Assembly (NCBI GenBank): GCA_017542465.1
Contig: JAFXXB010000040.1
Coordinates: forward strand, 24,301 to 88,300
Reading direction: 5' to 3'
Length of the DNA stretch: 64,000 bases
From: Bacilli bacterium
Lineage (GTDB): Bacteria > Bacillota_I > Bacilli_A > RF39 > UBA660
Shown here: piece by piece, positions 25,955 through 56,654 of the stretch
How positions within the stretch are numbered: the first letter of the stretch is position 1
Layout: each line of letters begins with the position of its first letter
Position numbers and translations under genes: made by a program
The notes under the pieces: generated by a model
Told to the model about the DNA's origin: nothing
The model's input: only the letters and a program-made list of their open reading frames with translations
The model's database searches: none

Positions 25955-25990
25955 AAAATAAAAAAAGTTGTAATTTCTTACAACTTTTTA
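25955..25990 (-). terminator. rho-independent terminator of addA
   Basis: On the - strand: GTTGTAA-gaaa-TTACAAC followed by T7ATTTTTT. The stem includes the addA stop codon. Confidence 0.75.
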
Positions 25991-28900: not shown

Positions 28901-29076
28901 GCTTTTTTAGTAAATGTTAATATTATTAAATCATTTATAGATGTACCATCTTGTACTTCTTTTAAAACTCTTTCTTTAAGTACAAAAGTCTTACCAGATC
29001 CTGCTCCTGCGGAAACGATAATGTTACATCCATTTTTTTCTATTGCTTCTTTTTGTTGTGGTGTTGGATTACTCAT
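25978..29076 (-). CDS. addA: ATP-dependent helicase/nuclease subunit A (AddA/RexA)
   Basis: I moved the start to ATG 29076, behind GAAGGAGA. The N-terminus reads '[29 protein letters not shown]'. UvrD-type motifs are 'ILIDEYQDTN', 'TIHGSKGLEF' and 'RLFYVAITRAKE'. The C-terminal RecB-type nuclease motif is 'HGFIDLLVEYDEHFDIIDYKTN'. Confidence 0.9.
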   Translation of the reverse strand: MSNPTPQQKEAIEKNGCNIIVSAGAGSGKTFVLKERVLKEVQDGTSINDLIILTFTKKAANEMKERIRKILTENNVEDAKYIDSAYISTFDSFAHSLVNKYSYLLDIDKNFNIIDSSIAKTELRNILDEILEDKYEKQDEKYIKLINNLCYKDDEDLRKDIIEIYSKYTNIVNKDKFLNIDSYYTDEFIENKLDEYENNIFDEFNKLIEVFEVFVEHSSDEKTIENNNKVLSLMQSITSLDELIDNYSSIKVSTIKENTYDDKEYIKGIKDSTYTDIYKSLGTQLNYYRKDLKEYYLSTYDDVIELKNIILELDDRMNKFKKEHNSYEFTDIAFKAIELVRNHKDIRNEIKNKTHEILIDEYQDTNDIQDEFISYIENNNLYMVGDIKQSIYGFRNANPKLFKSKYDSYSHNEGGYKIDLTSNFRSRGEVINNINDMFSLIMFDEIGGANYKATHKMEHGKVDYDKNIDKDVDYNLSILNYNNEDKKYKNDLIEAYIIADDIKNKMNRHAYNDDEFKPIRYKDFCILVDTSTRFETLKKVLESKGIPAYIAKGLSIKNDDEIYILKNLITCLTCIKKNEYKEPFKHAYASIARSYIYKMDDQEIYDAIKLRKFKDTDLYIKLKEISNYIDSLSNKEILYKLIDEFDFINKTISVGNIDERLAKLEHFIKQSNDLNKFGMDIYTMEQYFNDIVSSDDDDIQMEIEQSDKDAVTIMTIHGSKGLEFNYVYMPYLATNFMKDRSGKFVIDNELGLLVPFNNDGIDTTFMYKLYKQKQDIETISERIRLFYVAITRAKENFILITDFNDKLINNESIEPHDLLKCKSFRDFVTIIKPYFLNNIKYININELGIKNNLISKKDDYNSLIKPSKDTIDVNELNIDNKVLDNKHFSKPLTSVMTQELKDILDLGTIMHYCFEVYDFNHDNLNDLSIIDEYKNYIKAFLKHDEVKDISNAKIYKEHEIKFKKDGSTYHGFIDLLVEYDEHFDIIDYKTNNIDSPEYKEQLTGYKEYIESRYNKKTNIYLYSIKKDIFKKL

Positions 29077-31435: not shown

Positions 31436-31505
31436 GATTATCACCTATAAATATTATATCATTAAAAAAAGTTAAGTGATTACTTAACTTTCTATAATTA
31501 TTATT

Positions 31506-39496: not shown

Positions 39497-39573
39497 GGCC
39501 TGTTGGTGAAGTGGTTTAACACATAGCCCTCTCAAGGCTACATTCATGGGTCCGAATCCCATACAGGTCACCA
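39497..39573 (+). tRNA. tRNA-Glu-like, anticodon CUC, with encoded CCA
   Basis: The manual cloverleaf has acceptor GGCCTGT/ACAGGTC, D stem GTG/CAC, anticodon stem TAGCC/GGCTA with loop CT-CTC-AA, a 5-nt variable loop and T stem ATGGG/CCCAT. The T loop is TCCGAAT, so position 55 is C rather than T. The backbone resembles Bacillus tRNA-Glu. Confidence 0.75.
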
Positions 39574-41451: not shown

Positions 41452-41480
41452 TTTACAAACAAACAAATATTTGCTACAAT
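41452..41480 (+). promoter_or_regulatory. sigma-70-type promoter of the rpsF-ssb-rpsR operon
   Basis: TTTACA (41452-57), 17 nt, then TACAAT (41475-80). Confidence 0.65.
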
Positions 41481-41486
41481 ACTTTC

Positions 41487-41548
41487 GAGCGAAGAGCTCC
41501 TTGCTTATATTTAAGTATAAGCCGAATAGACCACAAGGAGGTGTAATA
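41487..41548 (+). promoter_or_regulatory. structured rpsF 5' leader (possible S6:S18 autoregulatory element)
   Basis: There are two hairpins: GAGC-gaaga-GCTC (41487-99) and GCTTATA-tttaag-TATAAGC (41503-22). The second is immediately followed by 'CCGAA' and the SD AAGGAGG. Confidence 0.35.
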
Positions 41549-41839
41549 ATGAATAAGTATGAAATGATGTTTATTGTAAAAGCTAATTCTGATGAAAAAG
41601 CTATTACAAAAACTGCAGATGCTCTTAAGTCAATTATTACTTCAATGAAAGGTAAAATTGTTGAAGAAAAGGATTTAGGAAGCAAAGAATTAGCTTATCC
41701 TATTAAAAAGGAAACAGTTGGTTACTATTTTGTAGTTGACTTTGAAGCTAACGCTGAAACAGTAGCTGAATTAGACAGAAAAGCTAGAATCGACGAATCT
41801 ATATTAAGACATTTAATTATCAGATTAGATGAGGAGTAA
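41549..41839 (+). CDS. rpsF: 30S ribosomal protein S6
   Basis: ATG 41549 follows AAGGAGGTG. The product starts 'MNKYEMMFIVKANSDEKAI...' and is 96 aa. Synteny with ssb and rpsR supports the call. Confidence 0.92.
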   Translation: MNKYEMMFIVKANSDEKAITKTADALKSIITSMKGKIVEEKDLGSKELAYPIKKETVGYYFVVDFEANAETVAELDRKARIDESILRHLIIRLDEE

Positions 41840-41842
41840 TTT

Positions 41843-42283
41843 ATGAATAATGTAAGTTTAATTGGAAGATTAACTCAAGATCCAGAATTAAGAACAACTT
41901 CTACTGGATTATCAACAACTAGATTTTCTATAGCTGTTGATGGAAGACCAACTGCAAGTGGTGAAAGAACAACAAATTTCATCAATATCGTAGCATGGAG
42001 AGGACAAGCTGAAAACGTTTGCAAATATTGCAAGAAAGGCTCACAAGTAGGAGTAACAGGTTATATTCAAACTGGATCATATACTGCTCAAGATGGTACA
42101 AAGAGATATACAACTGATGTTGTAGCTAATCAAGTAACATTCTTAGGTAGCAAATCAGCAAATGATGCTGATGAAACAATATATGATGTTGGTAGTGAAA
42201 CACCAGATGAAGGTACTGATTTAACAGGCATTGAATCAATGGGTGATGAAACAGTATTATCTGATGAAGAATTACCATTCTAG
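41843..42283 (+). CDS. ssb: single-stranded DNA-binding protein
   Basis: The N-terminus is 'MNNVSLIGRLTQDPELRTT' and the acidic C-terminal tip is 'DEELPF'. Confidence 0.93.
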   Translation: MNNVSLIGRLTQDPELRTTSTGLSTTRFSIAVDGRPTASGERTTNFINIVAWRGQAENVCKYCKKGSQVGVTGYIQTGSYTAQDGTKRYTTDVVANQVTFLGSKSANDADETIYDVGSETPDEGTDLTGIESMGDETVLSDEELPF

Positions 42284-42298
42284 AAAGGAATAATAGAA

Positions 42299-42514
42299 AT
42301 GGCTGAATTTTTTAGAAAGAAAAAGAAAGTTTGCCAAATGTGTGCTGGTAAAGACGTTGATTATAAAGATGTTAATATAATCACTAAATATATAAATGAA
42401 AAAGGTAAAATTATGCCTAGAAGAATGACTGGAGCTTGCTCTAGACATCAAAGACATATAGCTAACCAAGTTAAGAGAGCTAGATTCATGGCATTAATAC
42501 CTGATGTTAAATAA
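42299..42514 (+). CDS. rpsR: 30S ribosomal protein S18
   Basis: The product contains '...KKVCQMCAGKDVDYKDVNIITKYINEKGKIMPRRMTGACSRHQRHIANQVKRARFMALIP'. Confidence 0.93.
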   Translation: MAEFFRKKKKVCQMCAGKDVDYKDVNIITKYINEKGKIMPRRMTGACSRHQRHIANQVKRARFMALIPDVK

Positions 42515-42545: not shown

Positions 42546-42621
42546 TGCAATTTCATTGTATTTATATGGTCTCTTTGATAAAATTATTATAGTATGGATA
42601 GTAGTAGAGGGACGGGATACT

Positions 42622-45600
42622 ATGAAAGATTTTTTTAAGGTGCATTATTTTAAAATTTTAGCAATATTAAGTGTAATAATATTGTTTATTTTTGGTTTTA
42701 TTATTTTTAGTGGAAAGATGAATAAAACATTAGCGGATAATCAAAATAGACAACATACATATGCAAGATATAATGAAGGAGATGAAGCGATTCAAGGAAC
42801 AGAATATGTTACCTTTGATGCATTCTTCCTTGATGATTATGATAATGATGGCAATGCTGATATCGTTCGTGGTAGCGATATTGAAATTGGACAAACAGAC
42901 AAGTTATACTTTGAGTTAAAAGTATTAGGTGATGTTAAATTAATTAATGGTAAAATAACATTTGTTAATTCCAATGCTAGAGTTGCTGGTGTTCTTAATA
43001 AAGGTGCATTAGTATCTTCTAACCAAAGTAGTACGGATTTTAAAACTATAACTTTAAATGAACTTAATAATGGTTTAACTATAACTAAACCAATGAATAT
43101 ATATGCTAGATTAACTGATGATTTAACATCATATTCAGGAATTAACCAAGTAGTATTAACTGGTACTGTAACAGACCTATATGGTAATGTTTTAGCTGAT
43201 ATTGAAAAGACAGTTGATTATACAGTTGACTGGTATGGTGATAATGTTACTGCTACAGTAACTGGATCTGGTAAATTTGATGAAATACATCCAAATCAAA
43301 ATCCAGTAGTTAATTATACTGTTACATCATCAGAAACAGCTGGTCAATTATTCTTAAAAACTGCTTATCTTGAAGGTACAGTCAGCCAATTAAATGGTCG
43401 TGATCCTGAAAGTGTAGAAATATATGGTTCTGATATAACATATGATTACAATCCAACTACTAGAAAGTTCACTATAACTAAAGAATCAGAGTTAGACGGA
43501 ACACTATTAACGAAAAAAGCATATGATTATAAAAATGAATTAGTAAGTTATAACAACTATCAAGTAAGAGTAACATATCCATATGATGAAACAGATGAAG
43601 AAGGATTTACTTCGTTATCTGTAAGTTCTTGGTACGATGCTTATAATAATGATATGGGTGTTGATAGCGTTAAGACAAGTACAAAAGCATCAAGAATCAT
43701 ATCTGCATCATTTGTTAATCAAAAACCAGGTGGATCTCTTCCAATCGATAGAAGAAACAGTATATCTGTTGGTACTAAATCAACTATATTAGATGCAAAT
43801 TATGTAGATAAGACTGAAGCCACAAGTATTTATAATGGTGCTAATATTGAAGAGCCTTTCGAAGATTATCGTGTCAATTGGCATGTATATGTTCCATCGA
43901 TTCTTAATGATGAAAATAAAGGTGGAATGACATATACATTAAAACTTGAAGATAACAATGGAGATAAACTAAATAATACATTCGCATTTAGAAACTATGT
44001 TAAATATAAATCTATAAGTGTTACTGGTTTAGCATCTGCATTAAATGTTAATGGTACTATTAGAGTAGTTAATGCTGATACACATGAAGTTGTTCATGTA
44101 TTCTATGCTGGTAACTGGAATACTCCTTATACTTTTGAAAGTGATGTAAGAAGTATTGAATTATATGTAAATGGATTTAATTATATTAAAGAATATGTTG
44201 ATGCAAATAATTACCGTAGTCAATTATCATTTGGAGTTAATATGACTAAAACTATTGATAACAATAGTATTGTACAATATATTCCTCAAGAAGACTTTGA
44301 AACATATGGAACAATTACTTCTATAATGAATCAAACTATTTATAATGGAAATGAAATAGTTAAATATAATAATTTAGATACAAATAGTTATACTGGATAT
44401 GCATCATACGTTAATGCAGAATCTCAAGCATACTTATCAATAAGTAGATCACAAGTATATACTACAGAAGAGTCTGAAGTAACATTTACTATTACAACTA
44501 ATGAATTAGATGATATCTCAAGAGGATTTAAAGATGGTGAATATTTCATCTTAATGCCAACTGAAATATTAAATGCAAAAATAGTAAGCGTAACAGCTGC
44601 TGAAGGAAATGCAACTATAGTTGGATCTTCAGTTGGAACAACAAGTGATGGAAGAAAGTATATTAAATTAATAACAAGCAATAGTAGTCCTGGAAAACAA
44701 AAATTAAATATTAAAGCTAAGTTATTGCCAGACCCAAGAAAGACTGATAAGGGTGTATCATTTACTTTATATGCATACAATCCTAACTGCCATAACTATA
44801 GATATAAAGCAACAGATACATTTGATATAAATGGTAATAATGATAAAGAAGAAAAAGTAAGTTATGCGACTGCTTCGTTAACTTTATCTGCACCAAACGA
44901 AATGATTACAACATCTATCTTAAAGATGTATGATAATTCAGGAAATATAATTGTTGCACCTTTAATAGCAGAAGTTGACCCAGTAGAATATGATCCTGAG
45001 GCAACAGTAGAAGTAGGTTTAACAAATAATTCTGAATTTAGTGTTGATAATGTTAGAGTTGTTGGTAAGTTAGCTTACTATGATAATACTTATGTAATAG
45101 GTGAAGGATCACTTGGATCACAATATAATGTTCAAATGACTAGTGATGGAATAACTTATCCAGAAGAATTAGAAGGTAAAATACATATTTACTATTCAGA
45201 AGTTGAAACACCAACTGATGATTTAAATAATTCAGCTAATGGATGGACAACAAAAGAAAACACTGACTTCACAAAAGTTAAATCATATTTAATTGTGTTA
45301 GATAATTATACAATGGCAAGAGGTAAGAGCTTAACATTCTCATACAATATTGAAATGCCAATGAATACTGCAGATATTAATAAGGTTACATATTTTACTC
45401 ATGGTGTATATTATAATTTAATTACTGAAGCTGGTCTTCATGCATCATCTGTAGGTGGATCTAAACTAGGTATTAGAATGTCTAGACAATATAATTTAGA
45501 ATTAACTAACCTAAAATCTTACGGTGAAAGAATTATAGATGGTTCTAAGTATATCCTTGAAGATGATGAAGGAAATCAAACAATTCTTTCAACTAATGCT

Positions 45601-48600
45601 TCAGGTAAAGCTACAGTTAATGATTTATATATTAATAGAACTTATAGTTTAAAACAAATAAGTGTTAAACAACCATATATATTAGATGAAGAACAAAAGA
45701 CATTTAAAGTAAAAGACGATGAAAATAATGCTTTATCTATTGAAAGCAATGGAACATTTAAAACTATAGAATTATCTAATACAAAGAAATTAGTAATAGA
45801 TCATGAAAATGAAACAAAATATACATTAGTGATAAAGAATACAGATCTTGATACAGATGCTAATATTAGAAATGCATCATTTAAGTTAACAGGTAAAGGA
45901 TATGAAGATGGTACAATCTTAACTACAAATGCAAATGGTGAATATACATTAAAGAATGTATATTTAAATGAAAGATATACATTTGAACAAGTAACATCAG
46001 ATGGTTATTTAAGATTAACTAATAGTTTTGTTATTGATATAGTGAGAAATGATGAAACTGGTGAACCTGAGATTACTTTAACTAGAGTTCCAACATGGAC
46101 TTCACCAACAACAAGATTATTTTCTAATTATTGTGGATTAACATATTATTCTAGTGATAAATATTATACACAAGAAAACTGGGATTGTAGTTGGAATTCA
46201 GGTAGATATATATATGGATATATAAATGTTGATTTAACTGGCTTTAAAGAACAATATCAAGTATCTTATGATGTATCATGGCGTGATTCGGGTAAAGGTA
46301 CATACATGTATACTTGGATATTTGATGATAAAAGCGAATATCCTGGGCCTGGTTCTACGGGTGCAAAACCAACAATAACTATTAATTCATCTAGTTATAA
46401 TGGTTCAGAAGTAAATGGAACATTCTCTACAAATCAAATATCAAGAAAAGTTGATGGCCAATGGGTTAACTTAAACTTTATGGGTGGAAAGTCATATGAT
46501 GTGGTATTGTTTGAACGTAATGGTACAACTGGAAATGGTTTAAAAATTAGAAACATTAAAATTCAACCTGTAAGTGGTTATGATGAACAAGTAGCTCAAG
46601 AGTCTAAAATTAATGTGCCTTTAGATGATAATCAAAATGTATTACAAACTATTCAAGATAGTGATGATCAAGATTCTCCAGTATTAACAGTTCATGTTAA
46701 ATCTAAAAAGATTCCAACTTATACATTAGAAGTAACTAAAGTAGATGCTGAGACTAATGAACCATTAGCTGGCGCTCAATATAAGGTTGAGGGCCCTGGT
46801 TTAGGCTCTGGGAAATATATTACTACTGATGCAAATGGTAAAGCTTCTATAGAATTACAAAAGAAATATAACCATGATGTTATAAATGATGTTGATTATT
46901 CTCAAATTGAAAATGTATATACTATATCTGAAGCAGTAGCACCTGTTGGTTACATGATTGATCGTAATACTATTGAATTTAATGGTATCCAAGTACTATC
47001 AGATTGTACATACGAACGTAATGGGTATACATGTGATTTTTCACAAGAAAATTTAACAGCTGCTATTACTACTTCAGCAACTGGTTTTGCAACAAATACA
47101 TTTGATGCATCAACAAATACTGTTAAAGTATCACTAAAAGATTATCCAATAGTTAAGATAACTAAAAAAGACGGTGAAACTGGTGATTTACTTCCAAATA
47201 CATTATTTGCAGTATACAAAATTGTAGATTATAATGGTGTAACTGTAGATGTGCCTGCTGTTGATCAAGCTGGTAAAGTAATTGGATTAGAAGTAGAAGT
47301 AGATGGTCAAAGCTATTATGTTGTTAAGACTGATCAAAATGGTAACTTAAATTTAAATTTACCTGCTGGTCAATATAAATTACAAGAAGTTCAAGCTGCT
47401 GATGAAAAATATGAAGTAACTGATGCTAAATACTATTTTGGTGTAGGTGAAACTGTACCATATAAAGCGGAAGGTATTGAATATGTTGATCATAGCATTA
47501 GAAATTTAGAGAAGGCTGATTATGCAACGTATTATATATTTAAAGGTTTAAAGAATAACTATAGTACTGTTGATGGTGGATATATTGAAATGATTAACAG
47601 AAGCATCAACAAATATGATGCAAATGGTAATCTTGAGTGGGCCACACCTGCTAAAGCGGATTATTTCTGTTCTTCAATGTCAGAATATATATATCAAGAT
47701 GATCCTGATAGAAAGGAAATTTATCAATATAATACCGATATGTGCGAATTTTATGCATCAACAGCTAAGATAGTTGAGACTACAGATGGATATTTTGTTG
47801 CAATTTCAGATGAGTCTAGCGCTTGGGAATTTGACTTCGTAATTAAGTTAGATAAAAATGGTAATAAAGTATGGCAAAATCAAGATTATAGATACAAGTA
47901 TTTATATATGATGTATGGTAGATACGAAGCAGATTCATCTACATATCCATCATATTATAAAGTTCCAGGTGATGACTCCCATGTATATAATTCAAGTGTT
48001 TCTATTGCAGGTAATATTAACTATCCAAGTATTGGTGATATTAATATAGATGCAAATGGAAATCTTTTGATGTTTTCTGAAATAGGTACATATAATTATA
48101 CAAGTACTCAAACTATGTATGTTAATGGTGAAAATACAGGAGAATTTTCATACCATTATTATAATTATGTATATGAATTACCAGACGGAACAATCATGTA
48201 TCCTGATACTGACAATGATCATTACGTTACGTCTACTTCAACATACAATAGTGAGACTCAACAATATGAGTATTCATTTCAACCAAGTACAAATAGTAGA
48301 AACATAATGTATATTTTTAAATATGACAGTGAAGGAAATTATATAACAAATATTAATTATACTGATATGTTGATTGATAAGTTATCTGAATATGTTGTTG
48401 AAAACAATTTAGGTACAGGATATTATACAAAAAGTAGTAGTGCTTATGGAGATACTGGTTATTCATATATAGGTAGATATAATGATGGATCGATTCTAAC
48501 ATCGGCATATTATGATGGCGATTATATATTATCTCTAGATTATAATCAAAGTAATCGTAATAGTACAAATAGTACTTCAGTTCTAATGAAATTAGATGAG

Positions 48601-51600
48601 AATCTAAATCCAGTTTATGTTGTCCCTGTTGGATTAAACGGATATGCTAATGCATTATATTATACCAGCATGTCTAAATCCGTATATCCTGATAATGAAA
48701 CTGGCGGACTAATTTATGACGTTCCTTATATTACTGATTATGTTGGAATGGATCGAGACAGTAGTTCATATAAATTATTATCTCCAATGTCTTATGATAT
48801 TCAAAAAATAAGGGATTGGGATGGAAATTTAGTATATCCATCTGGAAGTTATTTAATTAAGATTGACGGACAAGGTAAATTATCACATGCTGTAGAATAT
48901 ACAAGATCTAAATATGGTGAATCTGCAGAAGCTAATGATATTTTATATGGTGAAAATAATATTGAAAAACTAAATGGAACAACAGAAGCGTTATTCTATC
49001 CTATGGAAGATAATTCTTATATTATAGCTAAAGATATATATTCTTCTAACAATGGAAATAGAATTAAACTTGCTTCAGGTGAAATGGTAACTATTAACCC
49101 TAGCACAACATCTGTTATATACAAGATTAATTCTGAGGGTAAGATTGAATGGCTTAAACAAATTTCAGGAGCTGGTCCAAATGCAACACCAGTCAACTTT
49201 AGAGCTAACGGATCATATGGTTATGTATTGTATCCGTATATTGAAACAGATGATGATGGCAATTTAGTACTTCCATTTGCTTTATATGATAAGTATTCAG
49301 AAGTTGGTAACCCTGATTTCACTACAATTACAAATGATACAACTCAATCAAATCCAACTAAATGGTTATACTTAAAATATGCTTTATCAGATGAAGTACA
49401 ACCATCAGGACCAGAAGCATATACATTAACACTAGAGAATAGAAGAAAAGAATTCAAGATAACTGCAGAAGCTAATGAAGGTGGAAAAGTAATAGTAACT
49501 AATCCAGATAATAATAATGAAGAGGTTGTTAACACTAACGCTAGTAAGAAAACAACATTAGAGACAGTAAAATATGGTGATAATAATATTTATAATATTA
49601 CTATTAAACCAGATGCTGGCTATGTTATTAAGAGTGTTAAAGTAAATGGCAAAGATATTAATTATACAGTTAATAATGATTCATCAATTACATTAAATAA
49701 GATTAATGATATTAAAGAAGAAAAGAATATTAGTATTACATATGAATATGGTATGTCTCAAGTAATTGTTAAACATTATTTATATGGTACTACTGAATCA
49801 ATCTTCAGTGATGAGATATTAACTGGACAAATATCAACATCATATACGACTGAACCAAATGTAACTGAACTATATAGTCTTGCTCAAGAGAATGGTGAAG
49901 ATATACTTCCTGATAATATGGAAGGTATATATACTGTTGAACCTATAACAGTAATTTACTATTATACTGAGAATCAAGTTGCATTAAGAATTAATTATTA
50001 TAAAGATGGAACTAGTGAAGAATTATTACCAACATCTGAAACTACTGCTCCAATTGGATCAGTATATGCAACATCAGCTGAAGTTATTCCTCATTATTCT
50101 GTATCAAGAGTACTTGGTAAAGAAAGTGGAGTCTTAAATAAAGACTTAACTGAGGTTACTTACATGTATGTTGAAGATGAAAATGCTAAGGTAGTAGTTA
50201 AATATGTTGATAAAGATACAAATGAAGCTATTGCTCCTCAAGTAGTAATGTCTCTTCCATATAATGAAGAATATACAACTAATAATGATGTAACAATTCC
50301 AAGTAATTATAGATATGCTTATTCTACACCTAATACAACTGGTAGAGCAGAACAAGCATTAACAGAAGTAATATATTACTATGAAAAGATACCATTTAAT
50401 ATAAGTGTTTATAAGAAGATTAATCGTTTAGTTATTAATAACGTTAATATTCCTATATATGATGAAAAGAACATGAATATCAGACCAGAAAAAACTGATG
50501 AAGTAACAGTTGATTATGCAATCATAGTTAAGAATACTGGTGACATTAAATCAACATTTAAAGTTGATGAAGAAGATATATTAGGATTCGTTATTAGTGA
50601 TAAGAAAGAATTTAATATATCTGGTGATAAATATGAAGTAAATGTTGAATTAGAGCCAGGTGAAGAGAAGACTTATAATATTACTTATAAATGGAATCAA
50701 AAGAGTTATGGTATAAGCACTAATAATGTATCATTGAAAGATGTATCAAATGATTTAGGATTTGATGAACCTGATTCAGATGATAATAATTCTTCAGCAA
50801 CAATTAAAGTGAATAAACCTGATACTCCACCACCAGCAACTGTACCAACAAAGAAAACAACAACTACAACAACAACAACTGAGGCTCCAACAACTGAAGA
50901 GTCTACAACTACAACAAGAAGAAAAACAACAACAAAGGCTCCTGAAGTTAAGGGTGAAGAAGTAGTTAAGAAACCATTCCCATGGTGGATAATTATAGTA
51001 GCTGTAACTGGTATTGGAATAATAGGATTATTAATCTGGTTATTACCAATCTTATTAAGAAAGACAGTTCTTGTAGCAATCTCTGGTAGTGTAGGTTCCG
51101 CAGTAGCAGCTAAGTTATTACAAGAAAGACAATGCAAAGTAACAGGTTTATTCATTAATAATGGAACTAACCTAGGACAATTAACTTATGCTAAACAAGT
51201 ATGTAGTAAATTAGGTATTGATCTATACGAAGAAGCTATAGATAAACAAAAGATTGTTGAAGCTATTGCTCACAGTCCAAATGAAGATTTAGATAAGATA
51301 TATAATAAAGTATTAATAGATACATTAAGAGATGTAGCTAAAGAACAACATATTAAATATATCTCAACAGGTACATATGCAACTAAGAAAGGTAACAGAA
51401 TTGAACCTGGTATAAATCAAGTATTTGATGAATCAACTAAGTTATCATTATTAACTGATGAAGATATAAAGAAATTATTATTACCACTTGGTGAAATAGA
51501 ATATCAAGAGATTAATAAAATAGCAGAACAAAACAATATAAACTATAATAGTAATAAACAAACTGCTATAGAAAAATTAGGTAATAATAATATACCTTCA

Positions 51601-51615
51601 AATGATAATAAATAA
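42622..51615 (+). CDS. giant (~3000 aa) membrane-anchored surface protein with a cytoplasmic MnmA-like tail; domains are Cna-B/SpaA-like, beta-propeller-like and MucBP-like
   Basis: ATG 42622 precedes the N-terminal signal-anchor 'FKILAILSVIILFIFGFIIF'. Prealbumin/Cna-B-like units include 'YTLEVTKVDAETNEPLAGAQYKVEG...TTDANGKASI' and 'VKITKKDGETGDLLPNTLFAVYK...KTDQNGNLNLNLPAGQYKLQE'. W/Y-rich repeats occur ('NGNLEWA', 'NGNKVWQ', 'EGKIEWLKQ'). There are three MucBP-like units ('VIVKHYLYGT...', 'LRINYYKDGT...', 'VVVKYVDKDT...'). A Thr-rich stalk and the TM 'WWIIIVAVTGIGIIGLLIWLLPILL' follow. No LPxTG motif is present. Confidence 0.8.
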   Translation: MKDFFKVHYFKILAILSVIILFIFGFIIFSGKMNKTLADNQNRQHTYARYNEGDEAIQGTEYVTFDAFFLDDYDNDGNADIVRGSDIEIGQTDKLYFELKVLGDVKLINGKITFVNSNARVAGVLNKGALVSSNQSSTDFKTITLNELNNGLTITKPMNIYARLTDDLTSYSGINQVVLTGTVTDLYGNVLADIEKTVDYTVDWYGDNVTATVTGSGKFDEIHPNQNPVVNYTVTSSETAGQLFLKTAYLEGTVSQLNGRDPESVEIYGSDITYDYNPTTRKFTITKESELDGTLLTKKAYDYKNELVSYNNYQVRVTYPYDETDEEGFTSLSVSSWYDAYNNDMGVDSVKTSTKASRIISASFVNQKPGGSLPIDRRNSISVGTKSTILDANYVDKTEATSIYNGANIEEPFEDYRVNWHVYVPSILNDENKGGMTYTLKLEDNNGDKLNNTFAFRNYVKYKSISVTGLASALNVNGTIRVVNADTHEVVHVFYAGNWNTPYTFESDVRSIELYVNGFNYIKEYVDANNYRSQLSFGVNMTKTIDNNSIVQYIPQEDFETYGTITSIMNQTIYNGNEIVKYNNLDTNSYTGYASYVNAESQAYLSISRSQVYTTEESEVTFTITTNELDDISRGFKDGEYFILMPTEILNAKIVSVTAAEGNATIVGSSVGTTSDGRKYIKLITSNSSPGKQKLNIKAKLLPDPRKTDKGVSFTLYAYNPNCHNYRYKATDTFDINGNNDKEEKVSYATASLTLSAPNEMITTSILKMYDNSGNIIVAPLIAEVDPVEYDPEATVEVGLTNNSEFSVDNVRVVGKLAYYDNTYVIGEGSLGSQYNVQMTSDGITYPEELEGKIHIYYSEVETPTDDLNNSANGWTTKENTDFTKVKSYLIVLDNYTMARGKSLTFSYNIEMPMNTADINKVTYFTHGVYYNLITEAGLHASSVGGSKLGIRMSRQYNLELTNLKSYGERIIDGSKYILEDDEGNQTILSTNASGKATVNDLYINRTYSLKQISVKQPYILDEEQKTFKVKDDENNALSIESNGTFKTIELSNTKKLVIDHENETKYTLVIKNTDLDTDANIRNASFKLTGKGYEDGTILTTNANGEYTLKNVYLNERYTFEQVTSDGYLRLTNSFVIDIVRNDETGEPEITLTRVPTWTSPTTRLFSNYCGLTYYSSDKYYTQENWDCSWNSGRYIYGYINVDLTGFKEQYQVSYDVSWRDSGKGTYMYTWIFDDKSEYPGPGSTGAKPTITINSSSYNGSEVNGTFSTNQISRKVDGQWVNLNFMGGKSYDVVLFERNGTTGNGLKIRNIKIQPVSGYDEQVAQESKINVPLDDNQNVLQTIQDSDDQDSPVLTVHVKSKKIPTYTLEVTKVDAETNEPLAGAQYKVEGPGLGSGKYITTDANGKASIELQKKYNHDVINDVDYSQIENVYTISEAVAPVGYMIDRNTIEFNGIQVLSDCTYERNGYTCDFSQENLTAAITTSATGFATNTFDASTNTVKVSLKDYPIVKITKKDGETGDLLPNTLFAVYKIVDYNGVTVDVPAVDQAGKVIGLEVEVDGQSYYVVKTDQNGNLNLNLPAGQYKLQEVQAADEKYEVTDAKYYFGVGETVPYKAEGIEYVDHSIRNLEKADYATYYIFKGLKNNYSTVDGGYIEMINRSINKYDANGNLEWATPAKADYFCSSMSEYIYQDDPDRKEIYQYNTDMCEFYASTAKIVETTDGYFVAISDESSAWEFDFVIKLDKNGNKVWQNQDYRYKYLYMMYGRYEADSSTYPSYYKVPGDDSHVYNSSVSIAGNINYPSIGDINIDANGNLLMFSEIGTYNYTSTQTMYVNGENTGEFSYHYYNYVYELPDGTIMYPDTDNDHYVTSTSTYNSETQQYEYSFQPSTNSRNIMYIFKYDSEGNYITNINYTDMLIDKLSEYVVENNLGTGYYTKSSSAYGDTGYSYIGRYNDGSILTSAYYDGDYILSLDYNQSNRNSTNSTSVLMKLDENLNPVYVVPVGLNGYANALYYTSMSKSVYPDNETGGLIYDVPYITDYVGMDRDSSSYKLLSPMSYDIQKIRDWDGNLVYPSGSYLIKIDGQGKLSHAVEYTRSKYGESAEANDILYGENNIEKLNGTTEALFYPMEDNSYIIAKDIYSSNNGNRIKLASGEMVTINPSTTSVIYKINSEGKIEWLKQISGAGPNATPVNFRANGSYGYVLYPYIETDDDGNLVLPFALYDKYSEVGNPDFTTITNDTTQSNPTKWLYLKYALSDEVQPSGPEAYTLTLENRRKEFKITAEANEGGKVIVTNPDNNNEEVVNTNASKKTTLETVKYGDNNIYNITIKPDAGYVIKSVKVNGKDINYTVNNDSSITLNKINDIKEEKNISITYEYGMSQVIVKHYLYGTTESIFSDEILTGQISTSYTTEPNVTELYSLAQENGEDILPDNMEGIYTVEPITVIYYYTENQVALRINYYKDGTSEELLPTSETTAPIGSVYATSAEVIPHYSVSRVLGKESGVLNKDLTEVTYMYVEDENAKVVVKYVDKDTNEAIAPQVVMSLPYNEEYTTNNDVTIPSNYRYAYSTPNTTGRAEQALTEVIYYYEKIPFNISVYKKINRLVINNVNIPIYDEKNMNIRPEKTDEVTVDYAIIVKNTGDIKSTFKVDEEDILGFVISDKKEFNISGDKYEVNVELEPGEEKTYNITYKWNQKSYGISTNNVSLKDVSNDLGFDEPDSDDNNSSATIKVNKPDTPPPATVPTKKTTTTTTTTEAPTTEESTTTTRRKTTTKAPEVKGEEVVKKPFPWWIIIVAVTGIGIIGLLIWLLPILLRKTVLVAISGSVGSAVAAKLLQERQCKVTGLFINNGTNLGQLTYAKQVCSKLGIDLYEEAIDKQKIVEAIAHSPNEDLDKIYNKVLIDTLRDVAKEQHIKYISTGTYATKKGNRIEPGINQVFDESTKLSLLTDEDIKKLLLPLGEIEYQEINKIAEQNNINYNSNKQTAIEKLGNNNIPSNDNK

Positions 51616-51617
51616 TA

Positions 51618-51650
51618 AAAGGATATTAGTTTAAACTAATATCTTTTTTA
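51618..51650 (+). terminator. rho-independent terminator
   Basis: GATATTAGT-ttaa-ACTAATATC followed by T6. Confidence 0.75.
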
Positions 51651-51754
51651 TTTTATAAGAGTTTTCAACACTATTAACAAATTATAGATATAAGGCTAAA
51701 AACATAGATTTTAAGCACTATTTTTTATATAATAATGTGTAGGAGGTAGTAGGT

Positions 51755-52192
51755 ATGAAAGTAATATTACTCCAAGATGTTAAGAAACAAGGTAAGAAAG
51801 ATGAAATAATTAATGTTTCAGATGGATATGCCAATAACTTCTTGATTGCTAAGGGCTTAGCTGTACCTTATAATGAAGCTAATAAAAAACAATTAGAAAG
51901 AACTATTAATAAAAGAGAACAAGCTGAAGAAAACTTAATAGAAGAGATGACTCTATTAAAGAATAAATTAGAGAAAACTAGTATTAAGTTTAAAGTTAAA
52001 ACTGGTAAAGATGGAAGAATGTTTGGAACAATAACATCTAAACAAATATGTGATGAATTAAAGAATAAAGGATTTGATATTGATAAGAAAAAGATATCAT
52101 GTGATCATACAATAGAATCACTTGGTACACATGTTGTTAATATTGAATTACATAAGAAGGTAGTTGCCAAGATTAATGTTAATGTAGAATAG
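51755..52192 (+). CDS. rplI: 50S ribosomal protein L9
   Basis: The N-terminus is '[39 protein letters not shown]'. The RBS is TAGGAGGT. Confidence 0.93.
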
Positions 52193-52203
52193 GAGGAAAA
52201 ATC

Positions 52204-53556
52204 ATGAACAACCAAGAACCAAGAAACATCGAAGCTGAAATGAATGCTTTAGGATGCGCTTATCTTAATCAAAGTGCATTAGATAAAGTATGTGATGAAT
52301 TATCTCCAGATATGTTCTACGATAAAAAGAATCAAGTAATATTCTCTGCTTTAAAAGAGTTAAGAGGTAGAAATGATAATGTTGATTCAACTATCTTAAA
52401 GAATGAAATTGAAAAGACTACACCTATTAATTCTGTAGGTGGAGTTGAGTATTTATCTGAAGTAATTGATTCTGTAGTAACATCTGCAAATGTTGATACT
52501 TATATAGATATTATTAAAGATAAATATTTAAGAAGAAAATTAATTGATACATGTACTAAGATTACCAAGAATGCTATGGATGAAAATAATAGTCAAGGTG
52601 AATTAATAGATTCAGCTGAGAAAGAAATATTCTCTGTAGCTAAACAAAGAAAATCTGGTGAGTTTAAGACTGCTGCAATGGTTGTAGCATCTGCTAAGAG
52701 ACAATTAGATGAGATGGCTAAAAATGGTAAGGATATTACAGGTATCCCTACAGGATTTATTGATTTTGATAAATTAACTACTGGATTACATCCTAATGAA
52801 TTAATTATCTTAGCTGCTCGTCCTGGTATGGGTAAAACTGCATTTGCATTAAATATTGCAGTTAATGCAGCTCTTCAATCTAATAAAGCTGTAGCTGTAT
52901 TCAACTTAGAAATGTCAGATGTTCAATTAATGTATAGAATGATAGCAGCTCAAGGTGCTGTTGATGGTTATAAATTAAAGACTGGTAAATTAAACAATGA
53001 TGATTGGAAAAGAGTTAATCAAGCAATGGATATATTATCTGATGCTCCAATTTATATTGAAGATACACCAGGTATAACTATTGGTGAACTTAGAGCTAAA
53101 TGTAGAAGATTAGCTGAGAAAGCTAATTTAGGATTAATCATAATCGACTACTTACAATTATTATCTGGTGGTTCTAATTATGGAACTAACAGACAACAAG
53201 AGGTATCTGATATCTCACGTAATCTTAAAACTATGGCTATGGAATTAGGTGTTCCTGTTATAGCATTAGCTCAATTATCTCGTTCTGTTGAAGGAAGAGA
53301 AGATAAGAGACCAATGTTACAAGATTTAAGGGAATCTGGTTCAATAGAGCAAGATGCCGACTTAGTTGGTTTCTTATATAGAGATGATTATTATAAGAAA
53401 AAAGAAGGACAAGCTGAAAATCCAATTTCACTTGTTGAATTAATAATTGCTAAGCATAGATCAGGTTCAACTGATACTATATATTTACAATTTGAAAAGA
53501 GCATATCAGAATTTAGAACATCAGTGCAACATCCAGATAATAAGAATGAGGAATAA
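52204..53556 (+). CDS. dnaB: replicative DNA helicase
   Basis: The N-terminus is 'EPRNIEAEMNALGCAYLNQ'. Walker A is 'ARPGMGKTAFALNIA'. 'IIIDYLQLL' and 'ALAQLSRSVE' are also present. Confidence 0.93.
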   Translation: MNNQEPRNIEAEMNALGCAYLNQSALDKVCDELSPDMFYDKKNQVIFSALKELRGRNDNVDSTILKNEIEKTTPINSVGGVEYLSEVIDSVVTSANVDTYIDIIKDKYLRRKLIDTCTKITKNAMDENNSQGELIDSAEKEIFSVAKQRKSGEFKTAAMVVASAKRQLDEMAKNGKDITGIPTGFIDFDKLTTGLHPNELIILAARPGMGKTAFALNIAVNAALQSNKAVAVFNLEMSDVQLMYRMIAAQGAVDGYKLKTGKLNNDDWKRVNQAMDILSDAPIYIEDTPGITIGELRAKCRRLAEKANLGLIIIDYLQLLSGGSNYGTNRQQEVSDISRNLKTMAMELGVPVIALAQLSRSVEGREDKRPMLQDLRESGSIEQDADLVGFLYRDDYYKKKEGQAENPISLVELIIAKHRSGSTDTIYLQFEKSISEFRTSVQHPDNKNEE

Positions 53557-53571: not shown

Positions 53572-55086
53572 ATGAAAGAAAAAGTAATAGGAACATTAAT
53601 AACTGTCTTTATTGCTTTATTTGTACTTGTAGTATCTATTGGTACTAAATCATTAGGAGAACCTAATGAAGTATATCAAGTATATTTAAATGGTAAGAAG
53701 ATTGGTTTAATTCAATCTAAAGATAGTTTATTAAGTCTTATAGATAAAGAACAAGCTAGTATTAAAGATAAATTTAATGTAGATAAAGTATATCCTCCTT
53801 CAGGATTAAACATTGAGAAAACATATACTTATAATAATAATTTAAGTGAGACTGAAGATATATATAATCAAATAAAAGAGTCTGACCCATTTACTATTAA
53901 AGGATATGTAGTAACAATTAATTATAATAATGAAGGTAAGGATGAAGATGAAATAAAAGAACCATTAAAGATAAATTTAATGGATTCTAGTCTTATTAAA
54001 ACATCTCTACATGAAGTAGCTGAAACTTTTATTGGTAAGGATGAATTAAAATTATATGAGAATAATACTCAAAGTGAAATAACAGATACAGGTGAAATAA
54101 TCACATCTGCTTATTTTGCTGAGACAATTACAATAAAAGAATCTTTAATGTCTACAAGTGAAAAGATATTTAATAATACAGATGATTTAACGCAATTCTT
54201 AATGTATGGTTCAAGTGAAGATCAACCTCAATACAAAGTTAAGGTTGGTGAAGATCTTAATTCAATAGCTGAAGATCATAAATTAAATATAGCAGAATTA
54301 TTAATAGCAAATCCTAAATATCCATCAGGTAATGCTTTAATAGCACCAGGTGATATATTAAATGTAGGATTAATTAATCCTGTTGTAAGTTTTACTTATA
54401 GAAAAACAGTAGTAAGTAATGAAAAGGTACCATATAAAACAGAATATGTTGAAGATGATAATAAATATACTAGTTATCGTGAAACTAAGACAAAAGGTGT
54501 AGATGGAATAAGTAAGGTTACTCAAGATGCATTATATGTTAATGGTGAAGTTAAGAACCTTAGAATTGTAACTTCAGAGGTTGTTAAAGAACCAATTAAT
54601 GAAGTAATTGTTAAAGGAACTAAGAAAGAACGTTCTTATGGTAACTATAATAGTATCACATTCTCAAGTGGTGATTATAGTTGGCCTACATTATCACCAT
54701 TTATGATAGTTTCAAGATTTGAATATAGATGGGGTGTATTCCATAGAGGTATAGATATAACTGGTGCCGGAGGAGGTTCTGGTTATGGTTCTCCTATATT
54801 TGCTATAAGAGATGGTGTAGTTTATAAAACAGGTACTGGCGTTAAAGAGGGTAATTATATTATAATTAAACATGAGGGTAATATATATAGCCAATACATG
54901 CATTTATCTAAGATAGGTGTATCAACTGGCCAAAGTGTTAAAAAGGAACAAAAGATTGGCCAAATGGGACATACAGGTAAAGGTGTAACTGGTACACACT
55001 TGCATTTAGGTATATGGATAGGAGCTCCTCCATACTTACCTGGTTCTACTGTAGTTGACCCATGTAAGAGTGTATTTAGATGTTAA
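53572..55086 (+). CDS. membrane-anchored LysM-G5-M23 peptidoglycan metalloendopeptidase (tandem paralog 1)
   Basis: An N-terminal TM comes first. The LysM domain is 'YKVKVGEDLNSIAEDHKLNIAELLIANP'. The G5-like region is 'KVPYKTEYVEDDNKY...KGVDGISKV...VKGTK'. The M23 motifs are 'HRGIDI' and 'GHTG...GTHLHLGI'. Confidence 0.85.
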   Translation: MKEKVIGTLITVFIALFVLVVSIGTKSLGEPNEVYQVYLNGKKIGLIQSKDSLLSLIDKEQASIKDKFNVDKVYPPSGLNIEKTYTYNNNLSETEDIYNQIKESDPFTIKGYVVTINYNNEGKDEDEIKEPLKINLMDSSLIKTSLHEVAETFIGKDELKLYENNTQSEITDTGEIITSAYFAETITIKESLMSTSEKIFNNTDDLTQFLMYGSSEDQPQYKVKVGEDLNSIAEDHKLNIAELLIANPKYPSGNALIAPGDILNVGLINPVVSFTYRKTVVSNEKVPYKTEYVEDDNKYTSYRETKTKGVDGISKVTQDALYVNGEVKNLRIVTSEVVKEPINEVIVKGTKKERSYGNYNSITFSSGDYSWPTLSPFMIVSRFEYRWGVFHRGIDITGAGGGSGYGSPIFAIRDGVVYKTGTGVKEGNYIIIKHEGNIYSQYMHLSKIGVSTGQSVKKEQKIGQMGHTGKGVTGTHLHLGIWIGAPPYLPGSTVVDPCKSVFRC

Positions 55087-55124: not shown

Positions 55125-56654
55125 ATGAAAGAAAAGTTATTAGGTGTATTGATAACTTTATGTGTTACAGCTTTATTGGTAGCTATGTGGATGAGTAGTA
55201 AATCATATAGTAAGCCAAGTGAAGTATATCAAGTATATTTAAATGGTAAGAAGATAGGTTTAATAGAATCTCAAGATAGTTTACTTGATTTAATTGATAA
55301 AGAACAAGCAAGTATTAAACAAGCTTTTAATGTTGATAAAGTTTATCCACCTGCTGGATTAAATATTGAAAAGACATTCACTTATAATAATAAATTAAGT
55401 AATACAGAAGATATTTATAATCAAATAAAAGAAACTGATCCTTTTACTATTAAAGGGTATGTAGTAACAATCAATTATAATAATGAAGATAAAGATGATG
55501 ATGAAAAGAAAGAACCATTGAAAATATATTTAATGGATTCAAGCCTTATTAAAACTTCATTACATGATATAGCAGCTACTTTTATAGGTGCAGATGAATT
55601 AAAGAAATATGAGAATAATACTCAAACTGAAATAAATGAAACAGGAGAGATTATTACATCAGTTTATTTTGAAGAAACAATAACTATTAAAGAATCATTA
55701 ATATCTACTGAAGAGAAAATATTTAATAGTTCTGATGAATTAACTCAATACTTATTATATGGAACTAATGATGATCAACCTAAATATACAGTTAAGGTTG
55801 GTGAAGATTTAGCTAAGATAGCTGAAGATAATAAATTGAATATTGAAGAATTATTAATAGCTAATCCTAAGTATCCATCTGGTAATGCTTTAATAGCACC
55901 AGGAGATGTATTGAATGTAGGATTAATTAACCCATTAATAAATGTAACTTATAGAAGTACAGAAGTTGAAGATGCTCCAACTAGATTTACTACTGAATAT
56001 CAAGATGATAAAACAAAATATGTTGATTATATGGTAGTACAACAAGAAGGATCAGATGGTGTTACAAGAATAACGAAAGATGTTCAATATACTAATGGTG
56101 AAATTAAGAAAGTTAGTATTACAAAACAAGAAACAATTAAACCACCAGTTAATAAAGTTGTAATTAGAGGAACTAAGAAATATCAATCATGGGGTGGTGG
56201 TGGAAATCCTCCTCAACCAGTTGGACGTGGTGACTTACTATGGCCAACAAATACTCCATATGTTATTACATCGTTCTATGAATATAGGTGGGGTACATTT
56301 CATAAAGGTATAGATATATCTGGTACTGGATGGTATTCACCAATTTATTCATCAACAGATGGTGTAGTTATAGCAGTTAATAATTCATGTGGTAATAAAG
56401 GTAGTATGAGAGATCATTGTGGTGGAAGAATGGGTAACTATGTTAAGATTCATTCTGATAAATTAGGTTATACATTTGTATATGGTCACGTTGCATCTAA
56501 TATTAAAGTACATGTAGGTGATACAGTTAGACAAGGACAAGTAATAGCTTCAATGGCGATGTCTGGTCAATCAACAGGTGTTCACTTACATTTCCAAATA
56601 GAGGATTCAAGTGGTCAAACATACAATCCATGTAAGATGGGGTTAAGATGTTAG
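55125..56654 (+). CDS. membrane-anchored LysM-G5-M23 peptidoglycan metalloendopeptidase (tandem paralog 2)
   Basis: The architecture is the same as in paralog 1. The first ~270 aa are highly similar to paralog 1. The M23 motifs are 'HKGIDI' and 'SGQSTGVHLHFQI'. Confidence 0.85.
   Translation: MKEKLLGVLITLCVTALLVAMWMSSKSYSKPSEVYQVYLNGKKIGLIESQDSLLDLIDKEQASIKQAFNVDKVYPPAGLNIEKTFTYNNKLSNTEDIYNQIKETDPFTIKGYVVTINYNNEDKDDDEKKEPLKIYLMDSSLIKTSLHDIAATFIGADELKKYENNTQTEINETGEIITSVYFEETITIKESLISTEEKIFNSSDELTQYLLYGTNDDQPKYTVKVGEDLAKIAEDNKLNIEELLIANPKYPSGNALIAPGDVLNVGLINPLINVTYRSTEVEDAPTRFTTEYQDDKTKYVDYMVVQQEGSDGVTRITKDVQYTNGEIKKVSITKQETIKPPVNKVVIRGTKKYQSWGGGGNPPQPVGRGDLLWPTNTPYVITSFYEYRWGTFHKGIDISGTGWYSPIYSSTDGVVIAVNNSCGNKGSMRDHCGGRMGNYVKIHSDKLGYTFVYGHVASNIKVHVGDTVRQGQVIASMAMSGQSTGVHLHFQIEDSSGQTYNPCKMGLRC

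Follow-up and report, generated by a model that had tools for sequence, protein, structure and literature searches.

A giant surface-protein gene that ends in an MnmA-like domain

We analyzed a stretch of 64,000 nucleotides (hereafter the window; part of contig JAFXXB010000040.1 in the Bacilli bacterium assembly GCA_017542465.1) in which a single open reading frame (ORF) encodes a giant surface protein whose tail, located directly behind a C-terminal transmembrane (TM) helix, is homologous to the N-terminal half of the tRNA 2-thiouridylase MnmA. An earlier description made from the letters of the window without database searches (the sequence-only reading) had proposed that this tail is catalytically degenerate and is retained for a noncatalytic purpose. 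We followed up that proposal by comparing the window sequence (W) with other loci or contigs (L numbers) and other proteins (P numbers). The ORF opens at a TTG at 42556 and has its first ATG at 42622. From N to C terminus, the protein is composed of a signal anchor, a passenger with SpaA and MucBP domains, a Thr/Pro linker, the TM helix, and the MnmA-like tail (Table 1). Pfam matched SpaA (4.7e-22) and MucBP (5.3e-10) across the long middle part and tRNA_Me_trans (5.3e-14), and only two segments reached a Kyte-Doolittle value of at least 1.8, residues 4-34 and 2785-2813. A regular-expression search found no LPXTG-like motif in the giant protein, which does not follow the sortase-anchored LPXTG plan; it is also unlike LPXTG proteins in what comes after the TM helix, a domain of 184 amino acids rather than a short basic tail. 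The earlier count of 184 codons following '...LLIWLLPILLR' in one open frame was exact. The Arg-Lys pair at the joint, in which the codon for K2814 begins at 51061, is equivalent to the N-terminal 'KK' of real MnmA.

Table 1. Features of the giant surface-protein gene and its C-terminal cassette, in window coordinates
Feature	Position	Strand	Basis
Giant surface-protein gene	42622..51615	+	Single ORF, 2997 aa from ATG; stop 51613-51615
N-terminal hydrophobic segment (residues 4-34), signal peptide or signal anchor	42631..42723	+	Kyte-Doolittle ≥1.8
Thr/Pro-rich low-complexity linker, KPDTPPP...TTTTTTTT...RRKTTTKAP	50815..50943	+	Translation
Conserved junction motif EVKGEEVVKKPFP; left boundary of cassette	50944..50982	+	Comparisons with L009, P0006, and L002
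Single C-terminal TM helix WWIIIVAVTGIGIIGLLIWLLPILL	50983..51057	+	Hydropathy; conserved in L002, L003, and P0006
Arg-Lys stop-transfer residues, fusion joint	51058..51063	+	Alignment with genuine MnmAs
Cytoplasmic tail, MnmA-type HUP (PP-loop) domain, 183 aa, complete, catalytically dead	51064..51612	+	Pfam, AF2, Foldseek, omega
Degenerate PP-loop SGSVGS (canonical SGGxDS)	51082..51099	+	Alignment
Tyr at first catalytic Cys position, 'IYNK' (MnmA 'MCNK')	51301..51303	+	Profile and MAFFT alignments
Remnant of second-Cys motif, AIEKLG (MnmA GICFIG)	51565..51582	+	Alignment
Terminator-like hairpin, 14-bp stem and U run; right boundary of cassette	51617..51654	+	-12.4 kcal/mol, z = -4.84

The tail is a catalytically dead MnmA HUP domain

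The tail matched the Pfam model of the MnmA HUP domain, PF03054, with an E-value of 1.8e-16 (60.8 bits; gathering score 20.6) over profile positions 2-192 of 202, and other PP-loop families matched it more weakly. The NCBIfam MnmA models matched at 2e-17, with scores below their equivalog cutoffs (NF001138, 63.1 versus 284 bits; TIGR00420, 53.4 versus 236.95). Among solved structures, the best sequence match was E. coli MnmA (2der; 2e-10). An AlphaFold2 (AF2) model of the tail, built from 26 sequences, had a pLDDT of 92 and a pTM of 0.88; the underlying multiple sequence alignment included real MnmAs, so the model leans toward MnmA. Its top Foldseek matches were 2hma (S. pneumoniae TrmU), 2det, 2der, and 2deu (TMq 0.74-0.80), and ThiI, LarE, and the NAD and GMP synthetases ranked below these MnmA structures. 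Profile, structure-sequence, and fold searches thus agreed with the proposed homology to the N-terminal half of MnmA.

The residues required for catalysis are gone. The PP-loop has changed from SGGxDS to SGSVGS just where the sequence-only reading placed it, and the PP-loop Asp is absent from every lineage of tails (SGSVGS in W, GGGISS in L003, SGGIVS in L009), with Gly, Ser, or Val in its stead. The first catalytic Cys is likewise lost, as had been claimed, but its position had been misplaced by a few residues: real MnmA PNPD(I/V)MCNK aligns with 'DLDKIYNK' in the window tail, such that the Cys corresponds to the Tyr of 'IYNK', and this Tyr is invariant across tails. The second Cys had been described as missing together with the barrel domains. 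The barrels are indeed absent, whereas the Cys motif is mutated rather than deleted; Cys2 is replaced by Glu in the W tail and by Asp or Thr in other tails, and the Lys and Gly of the remnant are invariant. Other motifs of the W tail have also changed (ATGHYA to STGTYA and DQSYFL to DESTKL), and PF03054 was the only domain found in it, with neither the central nor the C-terminal barrel domain present. With the PP-loop Asp and both catalytic Cys gone, the tail is enzymatically dead, as proposed; it is a homologue of the MnmA HUP domain and not a member of the MnmA/TrmU enzyme family.

Independent assemblies contain the same fusion

The window comes from metagenomic data and corresponds to the ENA contig ERZ27256878:k141_2376501, and the identical giant gene has been called in ENA contigs. 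We weighed the explanation that the fusion arose as an artefact of assembly or sequencing (a chimera, a missed stop, or a missed frameshift), or that the tail is made separately from an internal start. Besides the metagenomic origin of the window, this explanation could draw on a low-coverage contig, L002, in which a gene caller gave a stand-alone product of 188 amino acids; that product starts at a TTG within the end of the TM helix. Against it, the whole giant gene recurs in ERZ28018973:k141_881645 (L038) and in an XIEF21 scaffold (L039) with the junction and tail identical codon for codon, and these two genes differ from W only in how many Thr codons the linker contains. A JGI contig (L012), the one close strain in a scan of JGI metagenomes that otherwise returned ordinary MnmAs, spans and keeps the junction at 97.6% DNA identity over 1956 nt. 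The linker length depends on the strain, with an 18-nt and a 9-nt difference in L012, L038, and L039. An identical tail end was found in four short contigs (three Logan assemblies and one SPAdes contig). In all, at least seven more assemblies, produced independently by different assemblers in different studies, repeat the frame, and diverged relatives also keep it across the junction.

Scans for separate translation were empty, in line with the sequence-only reading; there is no in-frame ATG, GTG, or TTG in 50950-51612 (221 codons) and no Shine-Dalgarno-like motif in 50900-51300. The tail would accordingly be translated only as the cytoplasmic C terminus of the TM-anchored giant protein. Because independent assemblies match and no internal start or Shine-Dalgarno motif exists, misassembly, a missed frameshift, and separate translation are set aside, and the check for misassembly that the sequence-only reading had called for comes out in favor of the fusion. 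We conclude that the fusion is real and regard an artefact or internal start as a very remote prospect.

W and L012 differ at seven amino acids in the compared region, six of which fall within tail residues 104-117 (51370-51410). At these residues, L012 equals the consensus of L002 and L004, and the patch resembles a small gene conversion.

The tail belongs to a small family confined to one clade

In searches that covered 5.8 billion clusters and 1.8 billion representatives, only a few proteins were more similar to the tail than genuine MnmAs are. The closest to the W tail are P0003 (L004) and P0006, which lie on two contigs with 47 identical residues overlapping (74% identity), and P0001 (L002; 68% identity), followed by P0002 (L003) and P0007 (L011) at 49% and P0008 (L009) at 39%; P0005 (L010) is a fragment of the tail. 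Genuine MnmAs were 27-33% identical to all members of this family. A profile search of the 5.8 billion clusters with five tails found no further members, and a scan of GTDB species representatives found genuine MnmAs only (L005-L008, ∼30% identity) and no member of the tail family. The known members come from only a few metagenomes, and the labels of these samples (STEW19, XIEF21, and RUG) suggest a ruminant gut origin.

Wherever upstream sequence exists (P0002/L003, P0003/L004, P0006, P0007/L011, and P0008/L009), the tail directly follows the TM helix. The change of Cys1 to Tyr is common to all lineages, and Cys2 and the PP-loop Asp are lost in all; because these active-site losses are shared, the comparison of sequences points to descent of all tails from one domain that had lost its activity before they diverged. 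The sequence-only reading knew of no described adhesin with such a tail. The literature likewise gave none, with nothing relevant found on MnmA pseudoenzymes or on PP-loop or MnmA-derived tails of surface proteins, but the window protein is not unique, since it belongs to a small family with a portable TM helix and tail.

Two of these contigs carry the cassette in unusual surroundings. In L002 (positions 1-370), it starts exactly at 'VKGDD', right after the stop of an unrelated ORF that has no Pfam match; the contig is 1 kb long with a coverage of 1.5x, and the junction could be a relic of recombination or the product of chimeric assembly. In L010 (positions 1-430 of a 572-nt contig), the second half of the tail, with ATGHYA retained, sits on an unrelated N terminus that has its own AGGAGG and ATG, possibly a chimera or a decayed or rearranged copy. 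We did not accept L002 and L010 as stand-alone tails; the contigs are no longer than about 1 kb, L002 has ∼1.5x coverage, and both junctions are abrupt.

The TM helix and tail form a portable cassette

The giant gene, 9 kb in length, is wedged into a normally compact cluster, between rpsF-ssb-rpsR (41471-42500) and rplI-dnaB (51755-53556), an arrangement also seen in L009, L038, and L039. It is separated from rplI by a 139-nt spacer with a hairpin inside. This hairpin was found by direct folding; the built-in terminator scan, which needs at least three GC pairs, gave none.

L009 is the orthologous locus (giant gene-rplI-dnaB-G5/M23), and its comparison with W revealed an island of divergence. 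Protein identities between the two were 85% for the passenger, 90% for rplI, and 86% for dnaB, against 29% for the TM helix and 41% for the tail. At the DNA level, identity was 75-85% up to ∼50964, fell to 50-60% from there to the stop, and returned to ∼90% from 51615, which places the breakpoints at the 'EVKGE' motif and at the stop codon. Synonymous divergence followed the same boundaries: the Nei-Gojobori (NG86) dS was 1.16 inside 50964-51612 versus 0.41-0.63 in the flanks, with synonymous saturation in the island only, and the maximum likelihood (ML) branch length was infinite in the island versus 0.5-0.8 in the flanks. Relaxed constraint would not give a raised dS, and the island at the L009 locus was therefore replaced as a whole by recombination with an anciently diverged cassette. 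A second case comes from P0006, a protein of more than 3570 amino acids whose passenger (3,400 amino acids) has no detectable similarity to that of W; its last 131 residues, from 'VKGD...' onward, are 72.5% identical to W residues 2776-2900. The similarity of L002 to W likewise begins at 'VKGDD', on a contig that is possibly chimeric. We conclude that the TM helix and the dead MnmA domain are a cassette exchanged between giant passengers and loci.

The TM helices share a Gly-rich motif, [AG]G[LI]G[LI]IGLLIWL.P.LLRK, which is common to cassettes whose tails are just 49% identical and which may be a helix-packing or oligomerization interface. In L003 and L004, a TPR-like protein (the TPR matches are marginal), PfkB, and Smr follow the tail, an arrangement that we call locus B. 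L038, which represents the window strain, and L004, which represents locus B, come from the same sample, and the divergence of the flanks is similar for W-L009 and L004-L003; these observations would be consistent with each genome having two loci that carry the cassette.

The tail is under purifying selection

We estimated the ratio of nonsynonymous to synonymous substitution rates (dN/dS, omega) in 10 pairs of tails with a pairwise Goldman-Yang ML codon model (GY94/F3x4) and a likelihood-ratio test against omega=1. This model replaced NG86 and Biopython ML estimates of dN/dS, which were unstable or saturated (the Nei-Gojobori estimates for the tail were 0.25-0.55, with dS saturated). Omega=1 was rejected in 10/10 pairs, with p from 8e-5 to 3e-21, and omega was 0.17 in the two least saturated pairs, W-L004 (t=0.83) and L002-L004 (t=1.26). 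By the same model, the passenger, rplI, dnaB, G5-M23, PfkB, and Smr had omega values of 0.05-0.11. The closest pair, W-L012, in which the tails are 96% identical, had seven nonsynonymous and six synonymous changes, few for inference. We conclude that the tail is under purifying selection, less tight than that on its neighbors.

The openness of the frame was assessed separately in a neutral simulation with the base composition of the window (25.8% GC) and 20,000 trials. The probability that 184 codons would stay free of stops was 0.024 at 0.1 substitutions per site and 5e-4 at 0.25, and at 0.5 or more substitutions per site none of the 20,000 trials was stop-free. At the divergences observed, a neutral ORF of this length would gain 7-13 stops, and off-frame open runs within the giant gene average 4-11 codons. 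The HUP domain nevertheless is open in all three deep lineages. At the former active-site cleft, several positions do not vary among tails with otherwise only 39-49% identity, namely the loop residues G10 and S14, the Tyr in place of Cys1, the D-E of DQSYFL, LPxGE, and the K-x-G of the Cys2 remnant. A nonsense mutation just after 'LLRK' would restore an ordinary anchor of the type seen in P0172, described below, and that no such mutation is found in the three deep lineages speaks for a positive function, beyond the avoidance of misfolding. The rejection of neutrality in every pair supports the sequence-only reading in its view that the tail is retained for a noncatalytic purpose and is not a fresh pseudogene scar.

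Origin of the fusion

The course of the fusion can be read from relatives with longer tails. In L003, the TM helix is followed by the HUP domain (7.6e-26), the central domain PF20259 (4e-5), and the C-terminal barrel PF20258 (6.5e-11), in the order of MnmA. Its near-identical relative L011 reads all three domains in frame, and L003 is shifted within a run of A's. L009 retains the HUP and central domains, and the W group has the HUP domain alone, ending shortly after the Cys2 remnant; remnants of PF20259 and PF20258 are present in L003 and lacking in the W tail. The joint lies at MnmA residue 2-3 ('RK-TVLVAISGS' in the tail versus 'MKK-VVIGMSGG').

L003 has two further peculiarities of sequence. 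There is an apparent frameshift near the end of its passenger (positions 1-100), and the A-run shift comes from two additional A's in a homopolymer that lies between the central MnmA domain and the C-terminal one (positions 1040-1100), where L011 is in frame; at the 3.5x coverage of this contig, a sequencing error and a true pseudogene are indistinguishable.

Distant homologues of the C-terminal region of the passenger give the state without the tail. P0172 (46% identity) ends in a TM helix and 'RRKRMN*', P0173 (29% identity) in a TM helix and ∼30 residues, and P0174, a MucBP protein (27% identity), in LPQTG; like the giant protein, all three have a homologous C-terminal passenger region followed by a hydrophobic anchor. 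These comparisons suggest that the reading frame of a giant-protein gene ending in a TM helix and a short basic tail was joined to the first codons of an mnmA lying downstream. The central and C-terminal domains of MnmA would later have become dispensable, being kept in L003/L011, partly kept in L009, and gone in W, and the resulting cassette (EVKG(D/E) motif, TM helix, RK, dead MnmA domain, and terminator) would have moved by recombination between passengers and loci. In B. subtilis, trmU and yrrB are arranged together. By analogy with this arrangement, there is a weak possibility that locus B is the ancestral mnmA locus.

A probable exapted pseudoenzyme and its alternatives

Taken together, we consider that the tail is probably an exapted pseudoenzyme, that is, a noncatalytic cytoplasmic domain born by fusion to mnmA. 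Several observations weigh against this interpretation. The tail has been progressively shortened from its C terminus, and it evolves two to three times faster than the neighboring genes (omega 0.17 versus 0.05-0.11), with most of the omega values imprecise because of synonymous saturation in most pairs. The family is tiny (about eight sequences in 5.8 billion clusters), and all of its members come from one clade of uncultured Bacilli with 26-31% GC, which limits the evolutionary span over which constraint can be judged. Fragments of the cassette occur in broken contexts in the short contigs L002 and L010, possibly as decayed copies. Finally, the distant passenger homologues P0172, P0173, and P0174 lack an MnmA-like domain, so the tail is unneeded for anchoring as such. 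Relatives down to 39% identity do have an open fusion of TM helix and tail, in keeping with retention. A rival reading is that the tail is functionless, the slowly decaying and eventually vanishing scar of a tolerated read-through fusion with a neighboring mnmA. The lost catalytic residues, the stepwise C-terminal loss (three domains in L003, two in L009, one in the window), the homopolymer frameshift in L003, the fragmentary L002 and L010, the elevated omega, and the tail-less passenger homologues all fit such a scar. It is largely refuted, however, by the omega tests and the neutral simulation, given 7-13 expected stops and a HUP domain open in three deep lineages, and it also leaves unexplained the motifs of the former active site that are invariant among tails 39-49% identical and the spread of the cassette to a second, unrelated passenger. 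We consider a scar unlikely.

An alternative that accepts retention holds that the tail keeps the ligand binding of MnmA (ATP/AMP, the tRNA anticodon loop, or cysteine desulfurase) and would in this way couple the state of the surface protein to translation or tRNA thiolation. Several features would suit this proposal: a Gly-rich loop is preserved in part (S-G-[SG]-x-x-S) and does not vary at G10 and S14, 'DE' in DQSYFL and the 'LPxGE' motif are conserved, the fold is predicted with high confidence, and the 64 kb contain no genuine mnmA. Against it, every lineage has another residue in place of the PP-loop Asp, the barrel domains are absent from the tail, and the tails have isoelectric points (pI) of 5.0-6.2, compared with 8.2-9.1 for the N-domains of real MnmAs from related metagenome-assembled genomes. 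Retained MnmA ligand binding therefore seems improbable, if slightly less so than a scar. In the complexes 2der, 2det, and 2deu, the barrels of MnmA help hold the tRNA. Binding of tRNA by the tail, one of the functions floated in the sequence-only reading, is unlikely because the chemistry is gone, the barrels are missing, and the tails are acidic to neutral; the mildly acidic pI in particular argues against it. Returning to a retained pseudoenzyme, the tail is compact and well folded, is tethered two residues from the conserved TM helix, and is always inherited with it, and its most likely role is that of a putative structural or interaction module of the anchor, which would stabilize, hold, cluster, or position the giant protein. 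The remodeled cleft of the former active site may bind a cytoplasmic partner or a small ligand.

mnmA, tRNA-Glu, and other features of the window

A tblastn search of the 64-kb window with real MnmA found the tail only, and the gene tables covering ∼10 kb beyond each window end (L034 and L036, contigs sharing edge genes) contained no tRNA_Me_trans. The window also carries a tRNA-Glu(CUC) gene at 39497-39573 on the plus strand (ARAGORN; Rfam, 59 bits), which is unexpected at 25.8% GC, where GAG makes up only 13% of Glu codons. If the genome is without a working MnmA, this tRNA may be relevant to a possible loss of 2-thiouridine at position 34 (s2U34). In the most far-reaching form of this idea, the ancestral mnmA was consumed by the fusion, the clade is without s2U34, the tail is a ligand or partner module of a cassette that any giant surface protein could take up, and tRNA-Glu(CUC) is part of the compensation; we hold this combination to be a long shot.

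Codon usage across all 52 long ORFs of the window was extreme, with CAG used 8 times versus 410 for CAA, CTG once, CCC once, and CGG and CGC not at all; the stop codons of these ORFs were TAA (37), TAG (13), and TGA (2). Reassigned or unassigned CAG was considered and rejected, since CAG is rare yet present and codons that start with C and end with G are generally avoided.

Just downstream of dnaB lie tandem paralogous genes with G5 and peptidase M23 domains (53572-55086 and 55125-56654, plus strand). The first of these is 62% identical to its L009 orthologue, compared with 86-90% for dnaB and rplI. Elsewhere in the window, two large minus-strand ORFs at 25978-31444 (1067 and 791 amino acids) overlap by ∼110 nt.

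Significance and comparison with known systems

If our interpretation is correct, a housekeeping domain for tRNA modification came to serve, in catalytically dead form, as the intracellular end of a giant surface protein and, together with the TM helix, later became a portable cassette. The system offers an entry point to the role of cytoplasmic tails on TM-anchored giant adhesins, be it anchoring, clustering, or signaling. It also reveals a recombination mechanism that shuffles anchors and passengers, with one lineage preserving a three-domain intermediate. Were it true that the fused copy was the sole mnmA, the case would also point to the disappearance of an almost universal tRNA modification. 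The very narrow distribution and the uncultured host limit the reach of these findings.

Three known systems frame the tail. The first is MnmA itself (2der/2det/2deu; 2hma), to whose N-terminal HUP/PP-loop domain the tail is homologous over its full length at ∼30% identity; MnmA is a soluble enzyme, whereas the tail forms the C terminus of a 3,000-amino acid exported protein and is attached to its TM helix. For loss of function within the same fold, one parallel is Ctu2/Ncs2, a pseudoenzyme of the PP-loop superfamily that is the soluble partner of the active tRNA thiolase Ctu1/Ncs6. Both Ctu2/Ncs2 and the tail have a PP-loop fold, have lost the signature motif, and have been retained for a noncatalytic role; unlike soluble Ctu2/Ncs2, the tail is tethered to the membrane on an adhesin-like protein.

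For the plan of the whole protein, the nearest precedent is Ebh of S. aureus, a match at the level of architecture only, for which we claim no sequence homology. The giant protein shares with Ebh an N-terminal export signal, a long extracellular part, a single C-terminal TM helix, a cytoplasmic domain, and no LPXTG. To our knowledge, the cytoplasmic part of Ebh is not derived from an enzyme, and the giant protein is unlike Ebh in that its cytoplasmic part is a dead tRNA-modification domain within a recombining cassette. The 'transmembrane/cytoplasmic domains' of Ebh have been described as responsible for anchoring (PMC6548404). What is new here is the MnmA-derived cytoplasmic domain, its status as a pseudoenzyme under selection, and the recombining cassette of TM helix and tail; the giant protein otherwise follows the known plan of TM-anchored giant surface proteins of Gram-positive bacteria.

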